This document shows, one piece after another, positions 11,710 to 56,250 of a DNA stretch of 64,000 nt. The stretch covers positions 12,919 to 76,918 of IMG/VR virus record IMGVR_UViG_2974672511_000001; one strand, written 5' to 3'. Source of the DNA: a virus (lineage: Duplodnaviria; Heunggongvirae; Uroviricota; Caudoviricetes; Schitoviridae). Under the pieces are notes generated by a model. That model searched no databases. It saw only the letters and a program-made list of their open reading frames with translations, and was not told where the DNA came from. The number at the start of each line of letters is the position of its first letter. The first letter of the stretch is position 1. The position numbers and the translations under genes were made by a program.

Positions 11710-13686
11710 ATGGGAAAATATCAACATTTAACAGGCTCCTTTGCTACTAACTTAAACTCGGTAGATGAACCTACGTCTAAATCAATAGTGGGCAAGATCT
11801 GTTTAAAACCAGACTACCCTCATAATAATGCTCTGTTAGCTCATGCCTATAATGGACTGTCTAACAGAATACACAGTGTCTATAACTATGCACGGGATGA
11901 GTACACTCTAGGGCTGCCTGAGGGTTATGGAGTATATCTTAATGATACTCCGGTAGAAGATATTCGTGATGCTGTTGTAAGTGATGTTGGGTTTGATGTG
12001 TTGTTACGTGAGGCTTTCTTGTCGCTACCTAACTCAGATATTATATCTAGGTGGTATGCTGCAGAGAATTGGGGGTGGAATTCTTTAACGGGGGCATTTA
12101 CTAATCCACCTCTATCGAGTACGGATGGGGATAATGACGTAACTATTATTGCTTCAGAGTTCGACCCTGAAGGTGATCTGAGAGTTACATTTGCTATTGG
12201 GGGTAATACGAACAGGGTCATACGTGTAAGCGATCATGGCTTTAACCTGGATGAGTTGTACTACCATGTATCTTACGTCCCTCTCAACGACACAGGAGTA
12301 GCTGAGGCTTACTGGTTCTATAGGAAAGGGGCAGGGCAACACCCGGACTTAGACCTTCCGGTTGAAGTAGTCTATGGTTCTCCATTTATGCCAGTTATTC
12401 CTCTAAGGGAAAACAACCTGTCCTTGGGCCCAGAGTGTGAGGATGGTGAGTATGTTCGAGATGGTAACGGTGATAAGATCAAACCAGATACAGAACTATA
12501 CAGAACATCTGTCAAGTTGTGTAAGAAGGCTCGTACAGACTTTGATGAGATTACCCGTGAGATTTCAGGCAACCCTGACATCGATCAGATAGATCATGCT
12601 TACTTAATCTTTGGTATAGACGTACGTTCTGATTCACCGGCAGGGAAGCACTACTTATTTCAGTTCTTCGAATCCGTTGCTTTAGAGACTTCTGGAGCCA
12701 ACGAGATAGTAATCAAGGATTCTAACTTCCATTGTAAAGTTACGTTCGATGATGTGGTACGTACACTCCACATAGGTAATCTAACCAAGAAGACTGAACT
12801 TACTTACGCAGGTAATACCCTAACTCTTAAGAGACAGATCAATGATACTGAATATGTACAACTGGTGGTTACTAATTTAGTACATACTAACTATGTTCAA
12901 GATAGGCATGCAGTGGTTACTTCATTAGCTACTAGTGCAGATGAAGAGAACTTTAATTTCATTATCCCTTTGAGATTTGAATTGATTAAACAAGATAGAG
13001 GTATGTTTGAGAGAGAAGATTTAATTAGAGAGTCGTTTAAGTTGGTATTTAATACGTATGAGAAGAAGAAGTTGAAGTGGTATCAGCGGGGTATCTTTAA
13101 GGCGTTGATAACTATAGTTGCTATCGTAGTGACGGTGTATACAGCGGGTGCAGGCGCAGCAGCACTTGCAACGGCTACGGCAGCTGAAGCTGTATTGCTA
13201 GCGGCACAGGCAATCATCTACTCATCTTTAATAAGCTTAGGCTTTAAGATGTTGGCGAGGATACTACCTCCAGAGGTATTTGCTATATTAGCAGTCATTG
13301 CAATAGTGGTGGCAGGTTCACAAGCGTTCGGTGGTACCGACTTTACTAGCTTAACTTCACAGGATCTATTACAACTAAGTAGTAACCTAGTTGAAATTAC
13401 CAACTACAGTATTGAAGCTGAGATGGATACTCTTTTAGGGGAGATGACAGACTTTCAAGACTACGCTTCAGAGCTAGAAGATGAGCTACTACTCTTAGAG
13501 GAGTCATTAGCTAATGAACCGTTGTATGATGTAGGTGCACTGTTATTACATCAGCCAATGTTTATCTCAGGTGAGGAACCAGAGAACTTCTATACTAGAA
13601 CGATTCACGCAGGCAATATTGGTACTCAATCGTTAAACGTTATAGAATCATATGTTGATTCTAAGCTTGAATTACCAAAACAATAA
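11710..13686 (+). CDS. internal virion protein with hydrophobic membrane-spanning segments (ejection/channel protein candidate)
   Basis: Start moved to the ATG at 11710, downstream of the terminator. C-terminal third has two or three long hydrophobic helices (IVAIVVTVYTAGAGAAALATATAAEAVLLAAQAIIY..., VFAILAVIAIVVAGSQAFGG). Confidence 0.5.
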   Translation: MGKYQHLTGSFATNLNSVDEPTSKSIVGKICLKPDYPHNNALLAHAYNGLSNRIHSVYNYARDEYTLGLPEGYGVYLNDTPVEDIRDAVVSDVGFDVLLREAFLSLPNSDIISRWYAAENWGWNSLTGAFTNPPLSSTDGDNDVTIIASEFDPEGDLRVTFAIGGNTNRVIRVSDHGFNLDELYYHVSYVPLNDTGVAEAYWFYRKGAGQHPDLDLPVEVVYGSPFMPVIPLRENNLSLGPECEDGEYVRDGNGDKIKPDTELYRTSVKLCKKARTDFDEITREISGNPDIDQIDHAYLIFGIDVRSDSPAGKHYLFQFFESVALETSGANEIVIKDSNFHCKVTFDDVVRTLHIGNLTKKTELTYAGNTLTLKRQINDTEYVQLVVTNLVHTNYVQDRHAVVTSLATSADEENFNFIIPLRFELIKQDRGMFEREDLIRESFKLVFNTYEKKKLKWYQRGIFKALITIVAIVVTVYTAGAGAAALATATAAEAVLLAAQAIIYSSLISLGFKMLARILPPEVFAILAVIAIVVAGSQAFGGTDFTSLTSQDLLQLSSNLVEITNYSIEAEMDTLLGEMTDFQDYASELEDELLLLEESLANEPLYDVGALLLHQPMFISGEEPENFYTRTIHAGNIGTQSLNVIESYVDSKLELPKQ

Positions 13687-41921: not shown

Positions 41922-42185
41922 TTATTGCCCATGTGCTTCTCCTGCTAATGCAAAATATGCAGCACCGTCAACATAATCGTCTAGGCGGAAATCACCACCC
42001 TTAGCGCGTGCTGCCTTTAGGAAAACCATGAACATCCAGCCCTGCTCTTCCGTCAGTTCCAAGTTGTACATGGCGTTAAAAGATTCGACCGTAGCTTTCA
42101 TACTACGCTCTTCATCTGTATCACGTTCAGATGCTCTGTCACCTATGCAGGTGGCAGCAGTATCTAGGATCTCATCAGCTTTCAT
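41922..42185 (-). CDS. hypothetical protein (87 aa)
   Basis: Compact ORF. Overlaps the thyX 3' fragment stop. Confidence 0.4.
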   Translation of the reverse strand: MKADEILDTAATCIGDRASERDTDEERSMKATVESFNAMYNLELTEEQGWMFMVFLKAARAKGGDFRLDDYVDGAAYFALAGEAHGQ

Positions 42186-42609
42186 TGGTCAGCTCCTTCC
42201 ATGCCATCGGGAACAGAGGAGAGATAAGATCACCAATCTCTTTAGCCAGCTCTTGGATCTCAAGTTGTGCGTGACTATCGGTACGTTGGTTGTAGAAGCG
42301 TGCAAATGCAGCTAGAGAGCCTGTCCAGTACCAGTTAACTTCACAGCCTTGTGGTAGTAGGAAACGTGCTTGTTCTTCTGCAACACCACTAGCAAGCATA
42401 TCTTCATAGTCTTGGATTGCAGAATGTACTGAATCACGATAAGCCTTTTGAAGCTTAGCGTTATCAGGGTGTAGGCCACCACTACCTTGTTTCTTATTAT
42501 CGGCCTGAATACGGAATTCAGGGACAAAGAAAGTAGGCGTACTGCTAATGTAACGACGTGATTCTTCGTTCTCAGTAAATCCTACCTTGTGTTTAAACTC
42601 GATCTTCTC
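42175..42609 (-). pseudogene. thyX: thyX 3' portion (C-terminal ~145 aa of flavin-dependent thymidylate synthase): exon 2 of an intron-split gene or a split-gene fragment
   Basis: In-frame translation upstream of the ORF-track Met gives ...FTENEESRRYISS...ARFLLPQGCEVNWYWTGSLAAFARFYNQRTDSHAQLEIQELA. These are ThyX S-x-N-E-x-S-x-R-Y and C-terminal hallmarks. No start codon; the frame is closed by TAG at 42610. Confidence 0.6.
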
Positions 42610-42657
42610 CTAGGGGCGTTAACCCTAAGACGTTCTCTAATGAACTGCTACATATCT

Positions 42658-43314
42658 CTATGTAGAAGAGACTATATCATCACCGTCATCTTCTGTTACG
42701 GTGTCCTGCGCTTCCATCGCACTTGCGATGTACTCCCCTACGGGATAGTCGTTGCACCTTCCGCTTTTGCGGCTTGGCTCAGGATTGCCCACAGCACCAT
42801 CTGTTTGGGGTTCCCCTGAATTCACAGGAATTAACTCCGTAAGTTTCTTTACGGAACTGCTTAAACTGTATGTCTGAGTATTTCTATCAAAGTTTACTAA
42901 CCCTGCTTGAATCAGGGAGTATGCAACTTCTTCTAGTTGTGCATGACACGTTCTATGTTCTGACTTGGACATAGGTATCAGATTGTCCTTCGTATTATTG
43001 AGCTTATCACCATCAACATGGTGCACTACATGATCCTCAGGGATATCGGGGAATTGGATACGGTGGGCAGGGACATATTTATCCCCAGTGTATACAAGGT
43101 GGTAGCCTTGTTTAGTGATGTATCCATCTCCGTAGCCCCTAGCATCTTTGCGGAGCTTTTTAGCACATTTAGTGCAGTTTAGCTTACCTTCTTTGGGGAA
43201 AGTTGTAGTTAGACGCTCTTTGTTACATTCAGGACATTCAACTAGGTATTTATAACGGGGTTTCCCGCTAGGGAACTCACCGTCACGAATAATTTCTTTG
43301 TATAGCTTAGACAT
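42658..43314 (-). mobile_element. HNH endonuclease ORF inserted inside thyX (intron-encoded or free-standing homing endonuclease)
   Basis: Zinc-ribbon CPEC...CTKC, then canonical HNH HHVDGDKLNNTKDNLIPMSKSEHRTCH. Flanked by the two ThyX fragments. Confidence 0.7.
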
Positions 43315-43367
43315 ATTTTGGTCTCCGTTTAGTGTTTAGTACATATTACTAATCGGAGTTCAGTTAG

Positions 43368-43583
43368 TCAACACTGCGTACGTATTGGAATAGGTGCACG
43401 CACTCGTACTGTAATTGTGGGATGTTGGAAAGGAGTAATATGCCGGTGTTTAGCCAGATATTTAATAAGGCGTTCATTTTGTTCCTCAGTGCGACTACTG
43501 TCGCCTTCGTTAGCAAAGGAAACTCGGGCAGCACTTACAATGCTGTCGTCGCTTCCCATGTAATCAATCAATTCTACGTGCAT
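43368..43583 (-). pseudogene. thyX: thyX 5' portion (N-terminal 70 aa)
   Basis: MHVELIDYMGSDDSIVSAARVSFANEG...LIKYLAKHRHITPFQHPTITVRVRAPIPIRTQ matches the ThyX N-terminus up to just before the RHR motif, then stops. Confidence 0.65.
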
Positions 43584-43591
43584 TTAGCCTC

Positions 43592-43804
43592 CTAATCTTG
43601 AGTGTTATCGAATACTTCCCAACCTATCTTCTTTTCCATGATGATATTCATGTAGATAAGTACAAAAATGGGGATGATTCCCCACATCCCCATAGTAGGG
43701 AATACCAATGTTAAGGCTAGTAGGTAGATTAGGATATCTACAGTATTACAAATAGGTTTAAACATGAAACGGAAGAATTTATTATGCATCATACATCTCT
43801 CCAT
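43592..43804 (-). CDS. small membrane protein (2 TM, 70 aa)
   Basis: Two hydrophobic helices. Confidence 0.4.
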   Translation of the reverse strand: MERCMMHNKFFRFMFKPICNTVDILIYLLALTLVFPTMGMWGIIPIFVLIYMNIIMEKKIGWEVFDNTQD

Positions 43805-43877
43805 TTGCCGTGTTGGACTCTAGGTTTTCACAGATTTCAACTAACGGGCTTAATACGATTTGAGACATTTAGTTTCC

Positions 43878-44153
43878 TTAATTATCTTCGAGAATATCTG
43901 CCATCTTGTGGTAGTCAGATATTAATTTCATTTCTTTGTACAACGCGTACATATGTGGAGCCATTTCTTTGAATTGCTCCTCACCTATATCCTTCGCAAT
44001 GCGGGATAAACCCGCAAGGGAAGTATTAATAGGTCTGTGTGCCAGCCTTTGAAGTCCCGGATCCGGTCTTACTATGGAACCCCCCGAAGAGGAGTTCACA
44101 TATAAACCTTGGTCAGTCCCAAAAGGATCACACATTCTATCTGCCGACGACAT
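43878..44153 (-). CDS. hypothetical protein (91 aa), C-terminal ...ADILEDN
   Basis: Overlaps the stop of the DNA polymerase gene. Confidence 0.4.
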   Translation of the reverse strand: MSSADRMCDPFGTDQGLYVNSSSGGSIVRPDPGLQRLAHRPINTSLAGLSRIAKDIGEEQFKEMAPHMYALYKEMKLISDYHKMADILEDN

Positions 44154-46683
44154 TTAGAATCTCCTTTCTACTTAGGTTATTTTTAATGTTTACCGCGTCT
44201 TTCCATGACGGGTAGAAGATATCCAACTCTGCACCAATTTTAACGGTATCGTGCCAGTCGAGTTCAGGTAATCCATGGCTTTCCATACACTCTACTAGGT
44301 TATTGTTTAACCACTCAACTGCACCGACTTCATCAGGGAGTATCAGATAACACGCATCGTGAATCAGCGCACTGATGTGGATACGGCAACGATATTCTGA
44401 AGCATTGATTCTTTCCTGCAACATAGATGCTGCTTTGGAGTTAACAAGACCATAAGATTGACCTAGAGCATTACCTGCTGTACGTCCTTCTGCTGCAGCC
44501 TCTTTAGGCATACGAGGGGCACCCCACACTACATTACGGATCAGGGGAGTTCTAACTCTTAATCCATAAGCTACTGTGACGTAACCATCTTTGTTTGCCT
44601 TCTGTAGTCTATCTTGTACCCACTTATCCGACACTTGATACATGTCATGATAAGACTCTTCAATGGACTTGGCTTCATCTCGCGAGAAACCACAGTTATT
44701 CATTAGAGTAGTAAAGGTGCCTTGATAGGTCAGAGCAAAGGTTGGAGCTTTAGATAACTGACGAAGATTGCCAAAGATCTTCTCATTCTTGAGTTGGTTC
44801 ACATTCTCAGGAGTTTCAGTCATCCAATCAGGCATCTGGTCTTTGAAGTAGTAGTAGGCACGTAGACAGTGCCCACAGTAACCATCCTCATACACCTTAA
44901 TCTTATTAGGATCTCGGGTGGTTAGAGCAGATACATAATCTTCGAGGGAGTTGTAATCGGCACCGGCAAACAGTTTTCCTTCGGGAGCACGGAAGCAATT
45001 CTTAATAAGTTTTGCGTACGTACTACCACTAGGGATCTGCTGAAGGTTAGGCTTACTAGATGATAACCGTCCAGAGACAGTTCCACCGAGATTAAACCCA
45101 CCATACAAGCGGTGTGTGCCGTCACTAACAGGAACAGCATTAAGGAAGTTGGGCATAAACGAGGAGATTATCTTATCTACTTTAGACAAGTGAATCAGAC
45201 AACGGATAATCATTATCTTATCCTTGTCCTTTGTATGCTTCTTCAACTTCTTGAGTGTCTTGGTTCCAGTGGCAGGCTGTTTAGTATCGGTCATATCCAA
45301 CACTGGGAATCCCCAATGAGTGTATAACAGTTCCTGCAACTGTTTAGGTGAACCTGGGTTCAACTCAAGGTCTAAGAAGTCATCCTCAGTCTTACGCTTA
45401 ACCTTCCGAGTAGTGTTATAGAGATGAGTCTCTTGTTGTCGCCTGATTTTGAGGTAGCCTACTTCTTCGAGCTTACGTTGTAGAAAACCATAGTAGGTAT
45501 CATGCAACCGTGTCAGCCGTTTATTGGCCTTAATCACTGAAGGCATGTGGAGAGGCATTCCAACCAATTCCATCTGCAATATCTGCTTAGCCGCTGGCTT
45601 AAACAGAGTGTCGTAAATCTCGCGCTGATCGTCCGCATCAACAGTACCATTGTGTTTGTTATACACATACCAAGTGGATAGGCAATCCACCAAGTTGTAC
45701 TGCATCAATTTGTCTTTTTTAATTAGACGAATATCGTTGATGTCGTCTTCAGCATAGTTACCTGCAAACTCATGGGCCTGATCTTTCAAGCTAAGTTTGT
45801 TACCAGCACACGAGTTAGTAGCCAAATATGTTAAGAGCTTAGTGTCATCAAAGTTCTTTGTGACAGCCTCAACACCTTCAACCATTCCCTCGTAATCTAG
45901 GTAGTCCTTCATCCACAAAGTGTAGACAAGGATTTTCAGATCGTATCCAGCGTTATGCCAGATTAGTTTACCTTTGTACTCGGTAAAGAACTTCTTGAGT
46001 AACGCTCTTACCTCTTCACTGTCTTCCCGTACACCGGGAGTCCCTACCGGTTTGATATCCATCAATTCCTGCATTTTGGAGAGCGGGGTATTATCGACAT
46101 AATCACAACAGATTACGCCACCCTCATGTTGATTCCATGCGAAACCTACGGTGCCGATACCGGCATCTCCAAAGAAGAGGGAAAACGTTTCTAAGTCACA
46201 ACTCAGTTCTGGATACTTGTGAAGCTTCTTAAGAAACTTCTCAATATCAGCAACCTCATCGTAATACTCCGAGTGCTTAATAATATCCGAACCGAGTGTC
46301 TTAAACGTACCACTCATGTGGTCGTCCAAAGTCTTCAAAGACAAGGCTAACTTATCTCTATTCTTTGGGTCATAAAACAACGACTGGTAGTTAATGCCAT
46401 AGATCACCTTAATATGTTCAAAACCCTTCCAAGCACAGTCCAGTACAGATCCTAGGTAAGGTTCTGCCTTTGTATTCTTGGTAAGCTTCTTGAAATATTC
46501 CCCATCAGCGCAGTAGACAACCTTAATACTAAGACTATCTAATGCTTTCAATAGGGTTGGGATATAGGCATTGGCCACTTTAGCTGAGGGTTTCTTCTGT
46601 CCTCCATAGTCGAGACTCAACGCTACGGTCTTGTCACGGTCTAAGGCAGGAAAGTAGTTATCCTCTATGTTGCGCTGTACCAA
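44137..46683 (-). CDS. DNA polymerase, family A (N4 gp39-like)
   Basis: Pol I motifs GADYNSLED (A), KAPTFALTYQG (B), LIHDACYL (C). 848 aa. Confidence 0.8.
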   Translation of the reverse strand: MVQRNIEDNYFPALDRDKTVALSLDYGGQKKPSAKVANAYIPTLLKALDSLSIKVVYCADGEYFKKLTKNTKAEPYLGSVLDCAWKGFEHIKVIYGINYQSLFYDPKNRDKLALSLKTLDDHMSGTFKTLGSDIIKHSEYYDEVADIEKFLKKLHKYPELSCDLETFSLFFGDAGIGTVGFAWNQHEGGVICCDYVDNTPLSKMQELMDIKPVGTPGVREDSEEVRALLKKFFTEYKGKLIWHNAGYDLKILVYTLWMKDYLDYEGMVEGVEAVTKNFDDTKLLTYLATNSCAGNKLSLKDQAHEFAGNYAEDDINDIRLIKKDKLMQYNLVDCLSTWYVYNKHNGTVDADDQREIYDTLFKPAAKQILQMELVGMPLHMPSVIKANKRLTRLHDTYYGFLQRKLEEVGYLKIRRQQETHLYNTTRKVKRKTEDDFLDLELNPGSPKQLQELLYTHWGFPVLDMTDTKQPATGTKTLKKLKKHTKDKDKIMIIRCLIHLSKVDKIISSFMPNFLNAVPVSDGTHRLYGGFNLGGTVSGRLSSSKPNLQQIPSGSTYAKLIKNCFRAPEGKLFAGADYNSLEDYVSALTTRDPNKIKVYEDGYCGHCLRAYYYFKDQMPDWMTETPENVNQLKNEKIFGNLRQLSKAPTFALTYQGTFTTLMNNCGFSRDEAKSIEESYHDMYQVSDKWVQDRLQKANKDGYVTVAYGLRVRTPLIRNVVWGAPRMPKEAAAEGRTAGNALGQSYGLVNSKAASMLQERINASEYRCRIHISALIHDACYLILPDEVGAVEWLNNNLVECMESHGLPELDWHDTVKIGAELDIFYPSWKDAVNIKNNLSRKEILNVVGR

Positions 46684-56170: not shown

Positions 56171-56250
56171 TCGTGAGTGGGTGGATTCGAACCACCGACA
56201 ACTCCTTAGTTAAATGGTAGGAGCACTCTGACCGCTGAGCTACCAGGAGA
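56171..56250 (-). tRNA. tRNA-like element (possible degenerate tRNA gene)
   Basis: On the − strand: D-arm like tRNA-Arg (TAGCTCAGCGGTCAGAGT), perfect T-arm GGTGG-TTCGAAT-CCACC, 5-nt variable loop. The candidate anticodon stem CTCCT/AGGAG encloses a 12-nt loop and the acceptor arms do not pair, so no canonical cloverleaf. Confidence 0.35.

Follow-up and report, generated by a model that had tools for sequence, protein, structure and literature searches.

A group I intron in a phage thyX gene has been described once, in Vibrio phage vB_VspP_pVa5, where the gene was called 'td' (it is actually thyX; Katharios et al. 2017, PMC5746245). The report gave an Rfam hit only and noted '57 aa missing', with no mention of ThyX and no RNA structure, junction proof or reverse transcription PCR (RT-PCR) (PMC5746245). 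The pVa5 RefSeq record now annotates thyX as a join, and our literature search returned no paper on a thyX group I intron besides this report. Here we analyze a 64,000-nucleotide (nt) stretch of viral DNA (the window; positions 12,919 to 76,918 of IMG/VR record IMGVR_UViG_2974672511_000001), which is 100% identical to Vibrio phage 1.097.O._10N.286.49.B3 (NC_049431; N4-like, Schitoviridae, Dorisvirus). We predict, with a probability of roughly 0.9, that thyX of this phage is interrupted by a 773-nt mobile group I intron of type IA2 that lies between Cys71 and Phe72, just before the signature motif.

The 1.097.O intron belongs to a known, already reported kind, and the intron published in 2017 is its ortholog. 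The pVa5 intron has the same insertion site and layout of the open reading frame (ORF) and nearly the same length (774 vs 773 nt). The ribozyme cores are 93% identical and the HNH proteins are 71% identical. pVa5 belongs to a different phage genus, and identity falls to about 61% in the 5′ leader and in the part of the ORF that is coding only.

The interrupted thyX gene and its splice junction

The original prediction placed three pieces on the minus strand: an N-terminal part of ThyX, an HNH endonuclease ORF, and an in-frame region without a start codon that encodes the rest of ThyX. The positions were right, with two adjustments at the boundaries. Exon 1 is 71 codons long and ends at 43371 (the earlier limit of 43368 includes the intron UGA). 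The remainder of ThyX, given as 42175..42609, does lack a start codon, but it begins at 42597; the in-frame 'EKIE' at 42609..42598 is intron sequence and lies outside exon 2. The HNH ORF is as described, 657 nt long. This three-piece arrangement far exceeds chance. The parts are:

43371..43583, minus strand: thyX exon 1, 71 codons, M1 to C71 (ORF; end set by alignment to phage 1.026.O)
42598..43370, minus strand: group I intron, 773 nt, IA2-like (Rfam, gap relative to the intron-less allele, boundaries in 12 members)
42658..43314, minus strand: HNH homing-endonuclease ORF, 218 amino acids (Pfam HNH_3, AlphaFold2, PDB fold match)
42175..42597, minus strand: thyX exon 2, 140 codons plus stop, F72 to S211 (ORF, alignment, Pfam, structure match)

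The junction comes from comparison with an intron-less thyX in phage 1.026.O, which encodes a 97.6% identical protein and aligns to the window with one clean 773-nt gap. Uninterrupted thyX genes are found in five Nahantvirus isolates (1.025.O, 1.026.O, 1.150.O, 1.152.O, and 2.130.O), with proteins 97.6-98.6% identical to that of the window. Exon 1 is preceded by a Shine-Dalgarno sequence, AGGAGG, and its tail reads ...ACG CAG UGU, ending at 43371 (UGU is Cys71). The intron begins UGACUAAC at 43370 and ends ...AUCGAG at 42598, and exon 2 opens UUU AAA CAC AAG at 42597 (UUU is Phe72). In group I introns, the 5′ exon ends in U, which forms a U.G wobble in helix P1, and the intron ends in G. A one-base shift of the junction would be conceivable here, since U follows it on both sides. 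We chose ...CAGUGU/UGA...GAG/UUUAAA (slashes mark splice sites) because, of the possible placements, it alone leaves a U at the end of exon 1 and a G at the end of the intron.

Joining the exons gives a continuous frame and a full-length ThyX of 211 amino acids. Residues 4-201 of the spliced protein match positions 1-190 of the 191 in the Pfam Thy1 profile (PF02511; E 8.6e-47), and the protein aligns through the junction to the T. maritima and Thermus structures (PDB 1O26/6J61 family; E ~1e-30). Neither exon has a frameshift, the sign by which the original prediction would have called thyX a pseudogene. Exon 2 has no in-frame ATG, GTG, or TTG from the upstream stop (42612..42610) to 42399, a distance of 70 codons, so its first 66 codons are untranslatable on their own. 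The public 1.097.O record (NC_049431 gp52-gp54) gives thyX as a 216-nt coding sequence (CDS) and a 225-nt CDS (ATG at 42399) plus the HNH gene; exon-2 codons 72-137 (66 codons, including the ThyX motif) are unannotated in the 1.097.O records. The gene should be annotated join(43583..43371, 42597..42175).

It had been noted before that exon 2 reads KHK where RHR is expected, and either the junction or the catalytic triad was thought to need checking by alignment to ThyX. The junction is correct, and joining the exons does not restore RHR. The spliced ThyX reads RTQC/FKHKVGFTENEESRRY where canonical ThyX has RQWFRHRIASYNELSGRY, and the signature RHRxxSxNExSxRY occurs as the variant KHKVGFTENEESRRY, with R replaced by K twice and one extra residue. 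At least six other phage lineages have an uninterrupted ThyX that keeps the string RTQCFKHKxGF(T/V)ENEESRRY. Uninterrupted carriers of KHK are 1.026.O, VBP47, pYD6-A, Vp_R1, Lau218, and the Rheinheimera Barba phages, with KSK in one. Since KHK occurs in uninterrupted homologues, the motif is a clade-wide variant of RHR and no splice-site artefact. The segment aligns to QWFRHRIASYNELSGRY of T. maritima ThyX, and the equivalents of T. maritima H53, S88, R90, R147, and R174 are retained. The clade with KHKxGF(T/V)ENEESRRY includes N4-like phages, Grimontviridae, Lau218, and Barbavirus; the motif spans spliced residues 72-87 (window 42597..42550).

A family of introns at one site in thyX

We found about 110 homologues of the HNH protein, 45-71% identical and 190-247 amino acids long, almost all of them metagenomic. 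In all ten homologues whose contigs were examined, the HNH gene lies between two Thy1 fragments, and at all four loci tested an Intron_gpI match overlaps its 3′ end. Based on tBLASTn and motif searches, the introns all lie after ...I(R/K)(T/V)QC and before FK(H/S)K (the RTQC/FKHK site). Twelve distinct introns of 718-824 nt share their boundaries: the 5′ exon ends CA(A/G)UGU, the intron starts U(A/G)(A/G) and ends G, and the 3′ exon starts UU(U/C)AA(A/G).

The host thyX genes of the family are 30-57% identical to that of the window, and their neighborhoods vary, with ribonucleotide reductase (RNR) genes, RNA ligase, CotH, and tail-tip proteins. The divergence of thyX and the differing neighborhoods therefore point to horizontal spread into a single, conserved target site. 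Of 50,697 cultured-phage records, just 1.097.O and pVa5 carry the element, and their closest relatives are without it; the distribution is sporadic. An exact-pattern scan of IMG/VR with a 26-mer from P3-P5 had pVa5 as its sole match. Two loci (L005 and L006) were found through the peptide tail encoded by the ribozyme. L005 has a related group I core, and L006 has no RF00028 match at the gathering threshold.

Two features of the metagenomic host genes were observed in passing. On a single contig, a gene for an IS605 OrfB/TnpB-like (Cas12f-like) protein lies just upstream of an intron-containing thyX (L024:1-828). Many metagenomic intron-bearing thyX genes (exon 1 of L013-L018) have an insertion of 30-40 residues between LIxYLA and HxTPF, which is absent from the window ThyX and from solved structures.

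Core structure of the group I intron

A covariance-model search, which the original prediction had proposed for this region, gives an RF00028 (Intron_gpI) match at 42871..42648 on the minus strand. It scores 91.7 bits against a gathering threshold of 50 (E 3.2e-22) and covers the full model (1-253). A group I intron is almost certainly present at these coordinates. The core (intron nt 537-730) matches 480 phage records.

The secondary structure was drawn by hand from the Rfam alignment and inspection, on an alignment of the 3′ ~300 nt of the 12 introns (A2). For 68 pairs in 12 introns, 95.6% of the 816 cells are paired, and 40 of the 68 pairs changed on both sides. No shuffle of 500 was as good, and sliding the structure by 1-3 columns left 36-43% paired. 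The elements are as follows, taken from the A2 structure unless another basis is given:

42649..42829, minus strand: catalytic core, P3, P4, P5/5a, P6/6a, P7, P7.1, P7.2, P3′, P8, P7′, P9 (Rfam alignment, pair counts)
42835..42856, minus strand: P2 hairpin, 8 base pairs (bp), 42856..42849 with 42842..42835, loop AGAAAC (7 of 8 pairs changed on both sides in the 12 introns)
42829..42823 with 42710..42704, minus strand: P3
42819..42814 with 42784..42779, minus strand: P4
42809..42806 with 42791..42788, minus strand: P5
42803..42801 with 42794..42792, minus strand: P5a
42777..42776 with 42758..42757, minus strand: P6
42772..42769 with 42764..42761, minus strand: P6a
42750..42746 with 42674..42670, minus strand: P7, GACUA with UAGUC (all 5 pairs invariant in 12 of 12)
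42745..42742 with 42737..42734, minus strand: P7.1 (pairs changed on both sides)
42730..42725 with 42720..42715, minus strand: P7.2 (pairs changed on both sides)
42701..42698 with 42686..42683, minus strand: P8
42664..42659 with 42654..42649, minus strand: P9
42645..42642 with 42635..42632, minus strand: P9.1 peripheral hairpin
42629..42623 with 42615..42609, minus strand: P9.2 peripheral hairpin (all 7 pairs changed on both sides)
42598, minus strand: omega-G, terminal intron base (invariant in 12 of 12)

P7 is the guanosine-binding helix of group I introns and is expected to have that role here; as it is invariant, it is uninformative for covariation. P7.1 and P7.2 appear to mark the intron as IA2, the subgroup that Michel and Westhof (1990) reportedly defined by these extra hairpins between P7 and P3′. 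Every core helix is intact in the window intron, and the U.G wobble and omega-G are invariant across the family. The intron very probably splices, which would give a functional thyX mRNA.

P1 and the internal guide

P1 is predicted to join the 5′ splice site to a distant guide:

43361..43373, minus strand: P1 5′ strand, a proximal part of exon U-3 G-2 U-1 and intron U1, an internal loop, then a distal part of intron nt 6-10 AACUG (duplex prediction)
42858..42868, minus strand: P1 3′ strand (internal guide), CAGUU with nt 6-10 and A-G-C-A with U1, U-1 (G.U), G-2, and U-3

The guide A/G-G-C-A lies directly 5′ of P2 (42861..42858), and its GCA is invariant in 12 of 12 introns. The 5-8 nt upstream of the guide pair with intron nt ~5-14, in a sequence that differs among introns: AACUG/CAGUU in the window, ACUGUAU/AUACAGU in pVa5, AAGCGG/CCGCUU in L018, and AAGUUG/CAACUU in L014. 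In an all-against-all duplex test of 11 introns, cognate strands average -6.33 kcal/mol and non-cognate strands -2.63 kcal/mol (0 of 20000 permutations, p <5e-5). Three members with G at exon position -4 carry a compensating C in the guide. The invariant GCA and the covariation of distal P1 support the predicted U.G wobble. As the two strands covary, P1 is a long-range helix with the HNH ORF in its loop.

Two other pairings were rejected. A local guide GUACU (intron nt 29-33), for which pVa5 seemed to show a compensatory change, has no equivalent in L015, L018, or L020. Minimum-free-energy (MFE) folding pairs GUUUAAGC (42866 region) with omega-G and the 3′ exon GUUUAAAC; each strand is either invariant or coding, so the pairing shows no covariation, and a role as the P1 3′ strand accounts better for this segment.

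The HNH endonuclease and its overlap with the ribozyme

The intron probably encodes an active homing endonuclease. Residues 89-120 match Pfam HNH_3 (E 1.6e-8). The ORF is intact in 42 of 42 aligned homologues, in all of which H99, N107, N111, and H124 are invariant, and an N-terminal CxxC...CxxC pair is conserved in the family alignment. A PDB sequence search with the protein gave just a weak LIM-type zinc-finger resemblance at this pair. AlphaFold2, run with the family alignment, predicts a folded part, residues 1-164 (pLDDT 80-96), and a disordered tail, residues 165-218 (pLDDT below 50). The tail is encoded by ribozyme helices P3 to P9, whereas P1′ and P2 encode strand 148-151 and helix 153-161, the last elements predicted with confidence. 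A segment of consensus GxxSYTPxK is deleted at about residues 51-52 of the window protein (window ~43160, alignment A3).

The ORF starts in the P1 loop, crosses P1′, P2, P3-P7.2, P3′, and P8, and stops within the P9 loop, overlapping the ribozyme by ~211 nt (intron nt 503-713). All 12 introns use the same HNH frame, which is open at least to P8. The stop lies in P8 in five introns, in P9 in four, 8 nt before the 3′ splice site in two, and beyond it in one. The overlap-encoded peptide ...VNSG...GNPEPS...GRCNDYP.EEY is carried by 42 of 42 aligned proteins.

Comparison of the window with pVa5 separates the two parts of the ORF. Nucleotide identity is 61% over the 145 pure-coding codons, with 48, 32, and 88 differences by codon position and 53 synonymous codon changes, a pattern typical of purifying selection on a protein. 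The 71 overlapping codons are 93% identical, with 6, 2, and 6 differences and 2 synonymous changes. With this identity and no third-position bias, the constraint in the overlap is on the RNA. Overlap of ORF and core, with predicted variable stop positions, has been termed 'core creep' (Edgell, Chalamcharla, Belfort), with examples of 9-81 nt (PMC3073962). The layout of the thyX intron ORF is this pattern, with an overlap far above the cited examples. Because the ORF crosses P1′, P2, and P3-P9, a ribosome translating HNH must unfold the ribozyme.

Possible safeguards between translation and splicing

Two elements in the 5′ part of the intron look like safeguards:

43368..43370, minus strand: UGA, intron nt 1-3, ends the exon-1 frame at the 5′ splice site (sequence)
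43323..43358, minus strand: P1-loop hairpin, intron nt 13-23 with 38-48; its 3′ arm CGGAG holds the HNH Shine-Dalgarno sequence

UAA, UGA, or UAG occupies intron nt 1-3 in 12 of 12 family introns. An in-frame stop just past the 5′ junction is common among group I introns (PMC3073962). The HNH Shine-Dalgarno sequence GGAG (43326..43323) lies 8 nt before the AUG. The hairpin that covers it has an MFE of -10 kcal/mol (z -3.94, 0 of 200 shuffles). In 9 of 11 introns (cognate test, p 1.5e-4), the Shine-Dalgarno sequence lies 7-10 nt ahead of the start and is covered by an equivalent helix of unrelated sequence, with arms such as UCCUUAU/AUAAGGA, CUCUAUUU/AAAUAGAG, UCCACAA/UUGUGGA, and CUUGUGUAGG/CCUAUACAAG. 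I-TevI and other intron ORFs are known to have hairpins that sequester the ribosome-binding site (RBS) (PMC3073962). Since an HNH ribosome has to cross the entire core, it is sensible to read the hairpin as repression on the precursor, by analogy with I-TevI, and we lean slightly toward control of HNH translation by the hairpin.

A sigma-70-like sequence, TTGACT-17-TAATAT, at 43371..43343 on the minus strand straddles the 5′ splice site, with predicted starts between the hairpin arms; pVa5 has TTGTTA-17-TATACT at the identical position. A promoter-like site is found in 5 of 12 family leaders, compared with 1.25 expected from shuffles. A generic scan for sigma-70 promoters and terminators in 42000..44200 gave counts not above shuffles (4 promoters, 5.1 expected). 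We treat the intron-internal promoter as a lead only. It is possible, if unlikely, that the family represents an extreme, fixed form of core creep, in which translation and ribozyme folding are mutually exclusive and the Shine-Dalgarno hairpin is a switch, relieved late in infection by the straddling promoter, whose transcripts would begin between the hairpin arms as for T4 I-TevI. The exclusion on one RNA would arise because, in all members, the ORF extends at least from P1′ through P3′.

Proposed mechanism

We propose that the pre-mRNA would fold to a ribozyme whose P1 joins exon UGU, together with intron nt 1 and 6-10, to the guide ~500 nt downstream. This would place a U.G wobble at the splice site, next to a core of P3-P9 with P7.1 and P7.2, and a G at the end of the intron. 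External guanosine would attack after U-1, and exon ligation would give the mRNA for the 211-amino-acid ThyX. By analogy with homing endonucleases, the I-HmuI-like HNH protein may cut or nick intron-less thyX at RTQC/FKHK, and repair of the cut allele would copy the intron in (homing). Exon-1 ribosomes would be halted at the splice site by the stop in intron nt 1-3, and the hairpin may bury the Shine-Dalgarno sequence of the endonuclease.

Alternative explanations

Several observations weigh against a mobile, self-splicing intron. The exon-guide pairing in P1 is just 3 bp (4 bp in three members); short exon pairing is also seen in some other bacterial introns (Azoarcus). P10 has at most 2 bp (3′ exon UU with AA/GA 5′ of the guide G) and is weak or absent. 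MFE folds of 12 mini-introns with the ORF deleted give P1 in full for one and in part for two, and such folding is a poor test for short AU-rich helices. Splicing of the 1.097.O and pVa5 introns is read from sequence, and the 2017 pVa5 paper is without RT-PCR. The short P1 and P10 exon pairings would suit a decayed intron that no longer splices, with thyX dead in 1.097.O, and a phage thyX is probably dispensable where the host has its own thymidylate synthase. Such decay is nonetheless very unlikely: all core helices are intact; P7, the U.G wobble, and omega-G are invariant; the exons are without frameshifts and encode a protein 97.6% identical to that of the intron-less allele; and neither the stop at intron nt 1-3 nor the HNH ORF has been lost. 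Two thymidylate-synthase CDS and an HNH gene are annotated for 1.097.O in GenBank and RefSeq, in agreement with a split gene, in which ThyX would consist of two assembling polypeptides with a free-standing HNH gene between them and no RNA splicing. We consider this extremely improbable. The annotated second CDS, from the internal Met at 42399, omits 66 codons including the ThyX motif, and no in-frame ATG, GTG, or TTG occurs for 70 codons past the upstream stop. Between the two parts lies a high-scoring group I ribozyme supported by covariation, and RefSeq annotates a join in pVa5. The original prediction had preferred a group I intron to a split gene, and this choice is borne out by the Rfam score of 91.7 bits, the clean 773-nt gap, the U/...G/ boundaries, and the start-less exon 2.

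Other points weigh against the endonuclease. The best and sole meaningful PDB fold match, to I-HmuI (1U3E), is weak (E 0.0098, probability 1.00, TM 0.24-0.29), the low TM being due to the elongated shape of both proteins. The window and pVa5 HNH proteins share an 8-residue deletion after the second CxxC relative to most family members, so endonuclease activity is not assured. With an element found in just two cultured phages, this deletion is in keeping with an intron that splices but holds a relic HNH ORF, inherited vertically and without homing. We regard a relic as improbable, as the ORF is intact in 42 of 42 aligned homologues with its HNH residues invariant, change between window and pVa5 is third-position-biased in the pure-coding part, and the presence of the same intron in 30-57% identical thyX genes in unrelated contexts argues for horizontal spread. 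A closer question is whether the Shine-Dalgarno hairpin is a mere folding element of the P1 loop without translational control. It is absent from L026 and L028, which have very short leaders, and from L020. Against this, 9 of 11 introns have a 3′ arm that covers their purine-rich Shine-Dalgarno sequence, even with completely different sequences, and RBS-sequestering hairpins are known for I-TevI and other intron ORFs (PMC3073962), so a pure folding role seems somewhat the weaker of the two. The mobile IA2-type intron is the reading that we carry forward.

Significance of the family

This analysis adds the exact junction, the structure, the distribution across the family, and the extreme overlap of ORF and core. 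These are variations on established themes and do not overturn current understanding. The value lies in the family, ~110 homologues mostly from uncultured marine phages that represent one intron/HNH lineage on one thyX site. It is a natural replicate set for how a coding frame and a ribozyme share ~200 nt. Through its variable stops (P8, P9, and the 3′ end) it bears on core creep, and it also bears on how translation of an endonuclease is kept from destroying splicing.

Neighboring genes and other observations

A DUF6378 gene (41922..42185, minus strand) starts 11 nt before the thyX stop codon, and the two genes overlap. The thyX-DUF6378 pair recurs on the unrelated metagenomic contigs L015 and L016. 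Compared with 1.026.O, 1.097.O is without an RNA ligase gene and a 414-nt gene between DNA polymerase and thyX (~43600..44150), and it has an additional 588-nt hypothetical gene, gp49, downstream.

The window also contains a tRNA-like element at 56179..56243 on the minus strand, inside or beside small ORFs. Its Rfam tRNA score of 30.2 bits is just above gathering, and ARAGORN finds no tRNA there. The element has good-looking D and T arms (GGUGGUUCGAAUCCACC), an anticodon stem that closes a 12-nt loop, and no evident acceptor stem. The pVa5 paper reported an odd 'tRNA-Stop' (PMC5746245).

Comparison with known systems

The T4 td intron with I-TevI is, like the window intron, a group I intron of type IA2 in a phage thymidylate-synthase gene, with a hairpin-sequestered RBS and an ORF whose 3′ end overlaps the core (PMC3073962). 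It differs in its host gene, thyA, whose fold is unrelated to that of thyX, and in its endonuclease, which is GIY-YIG and not HNH. The td ORF lies in P6 with a 20-nt core overlap, whereas the window ORF lies in the P1 loop with an overlap of ~210 nt.

The DNA-polymerase intron of Bacillus phage SPO1 is likewise a group I intron, and it encodes an HNH nicking homing endonuclease, I-HmuI, which is 22% identical to the window HNH protein over 116 columns. It differs in host gene, in the placement of the ORF in P8, and in an overlap of 9 nt (PMC3073962).

The tRNA-fMet intron of Synechocystis PCC 6803 resembles the window intron in having its ORF (I-Ssp6803I) in P1, where it overlaps P1/P2 by 61 nt (PMC3073962). 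It differs in its PD-(D/E)XK endonuclease, its tRNA host gene, and its much smaller overlap.

The IA2-type introns of Staphylococcus Twort/K-like phages and of the roseophage DSS3_VP1 terminase have cores that are 74-79% identical in nucleotides to that of the window (intron nt 537-730). They differ from it in host genes, in P1/P2, and in having different ORFs or none.

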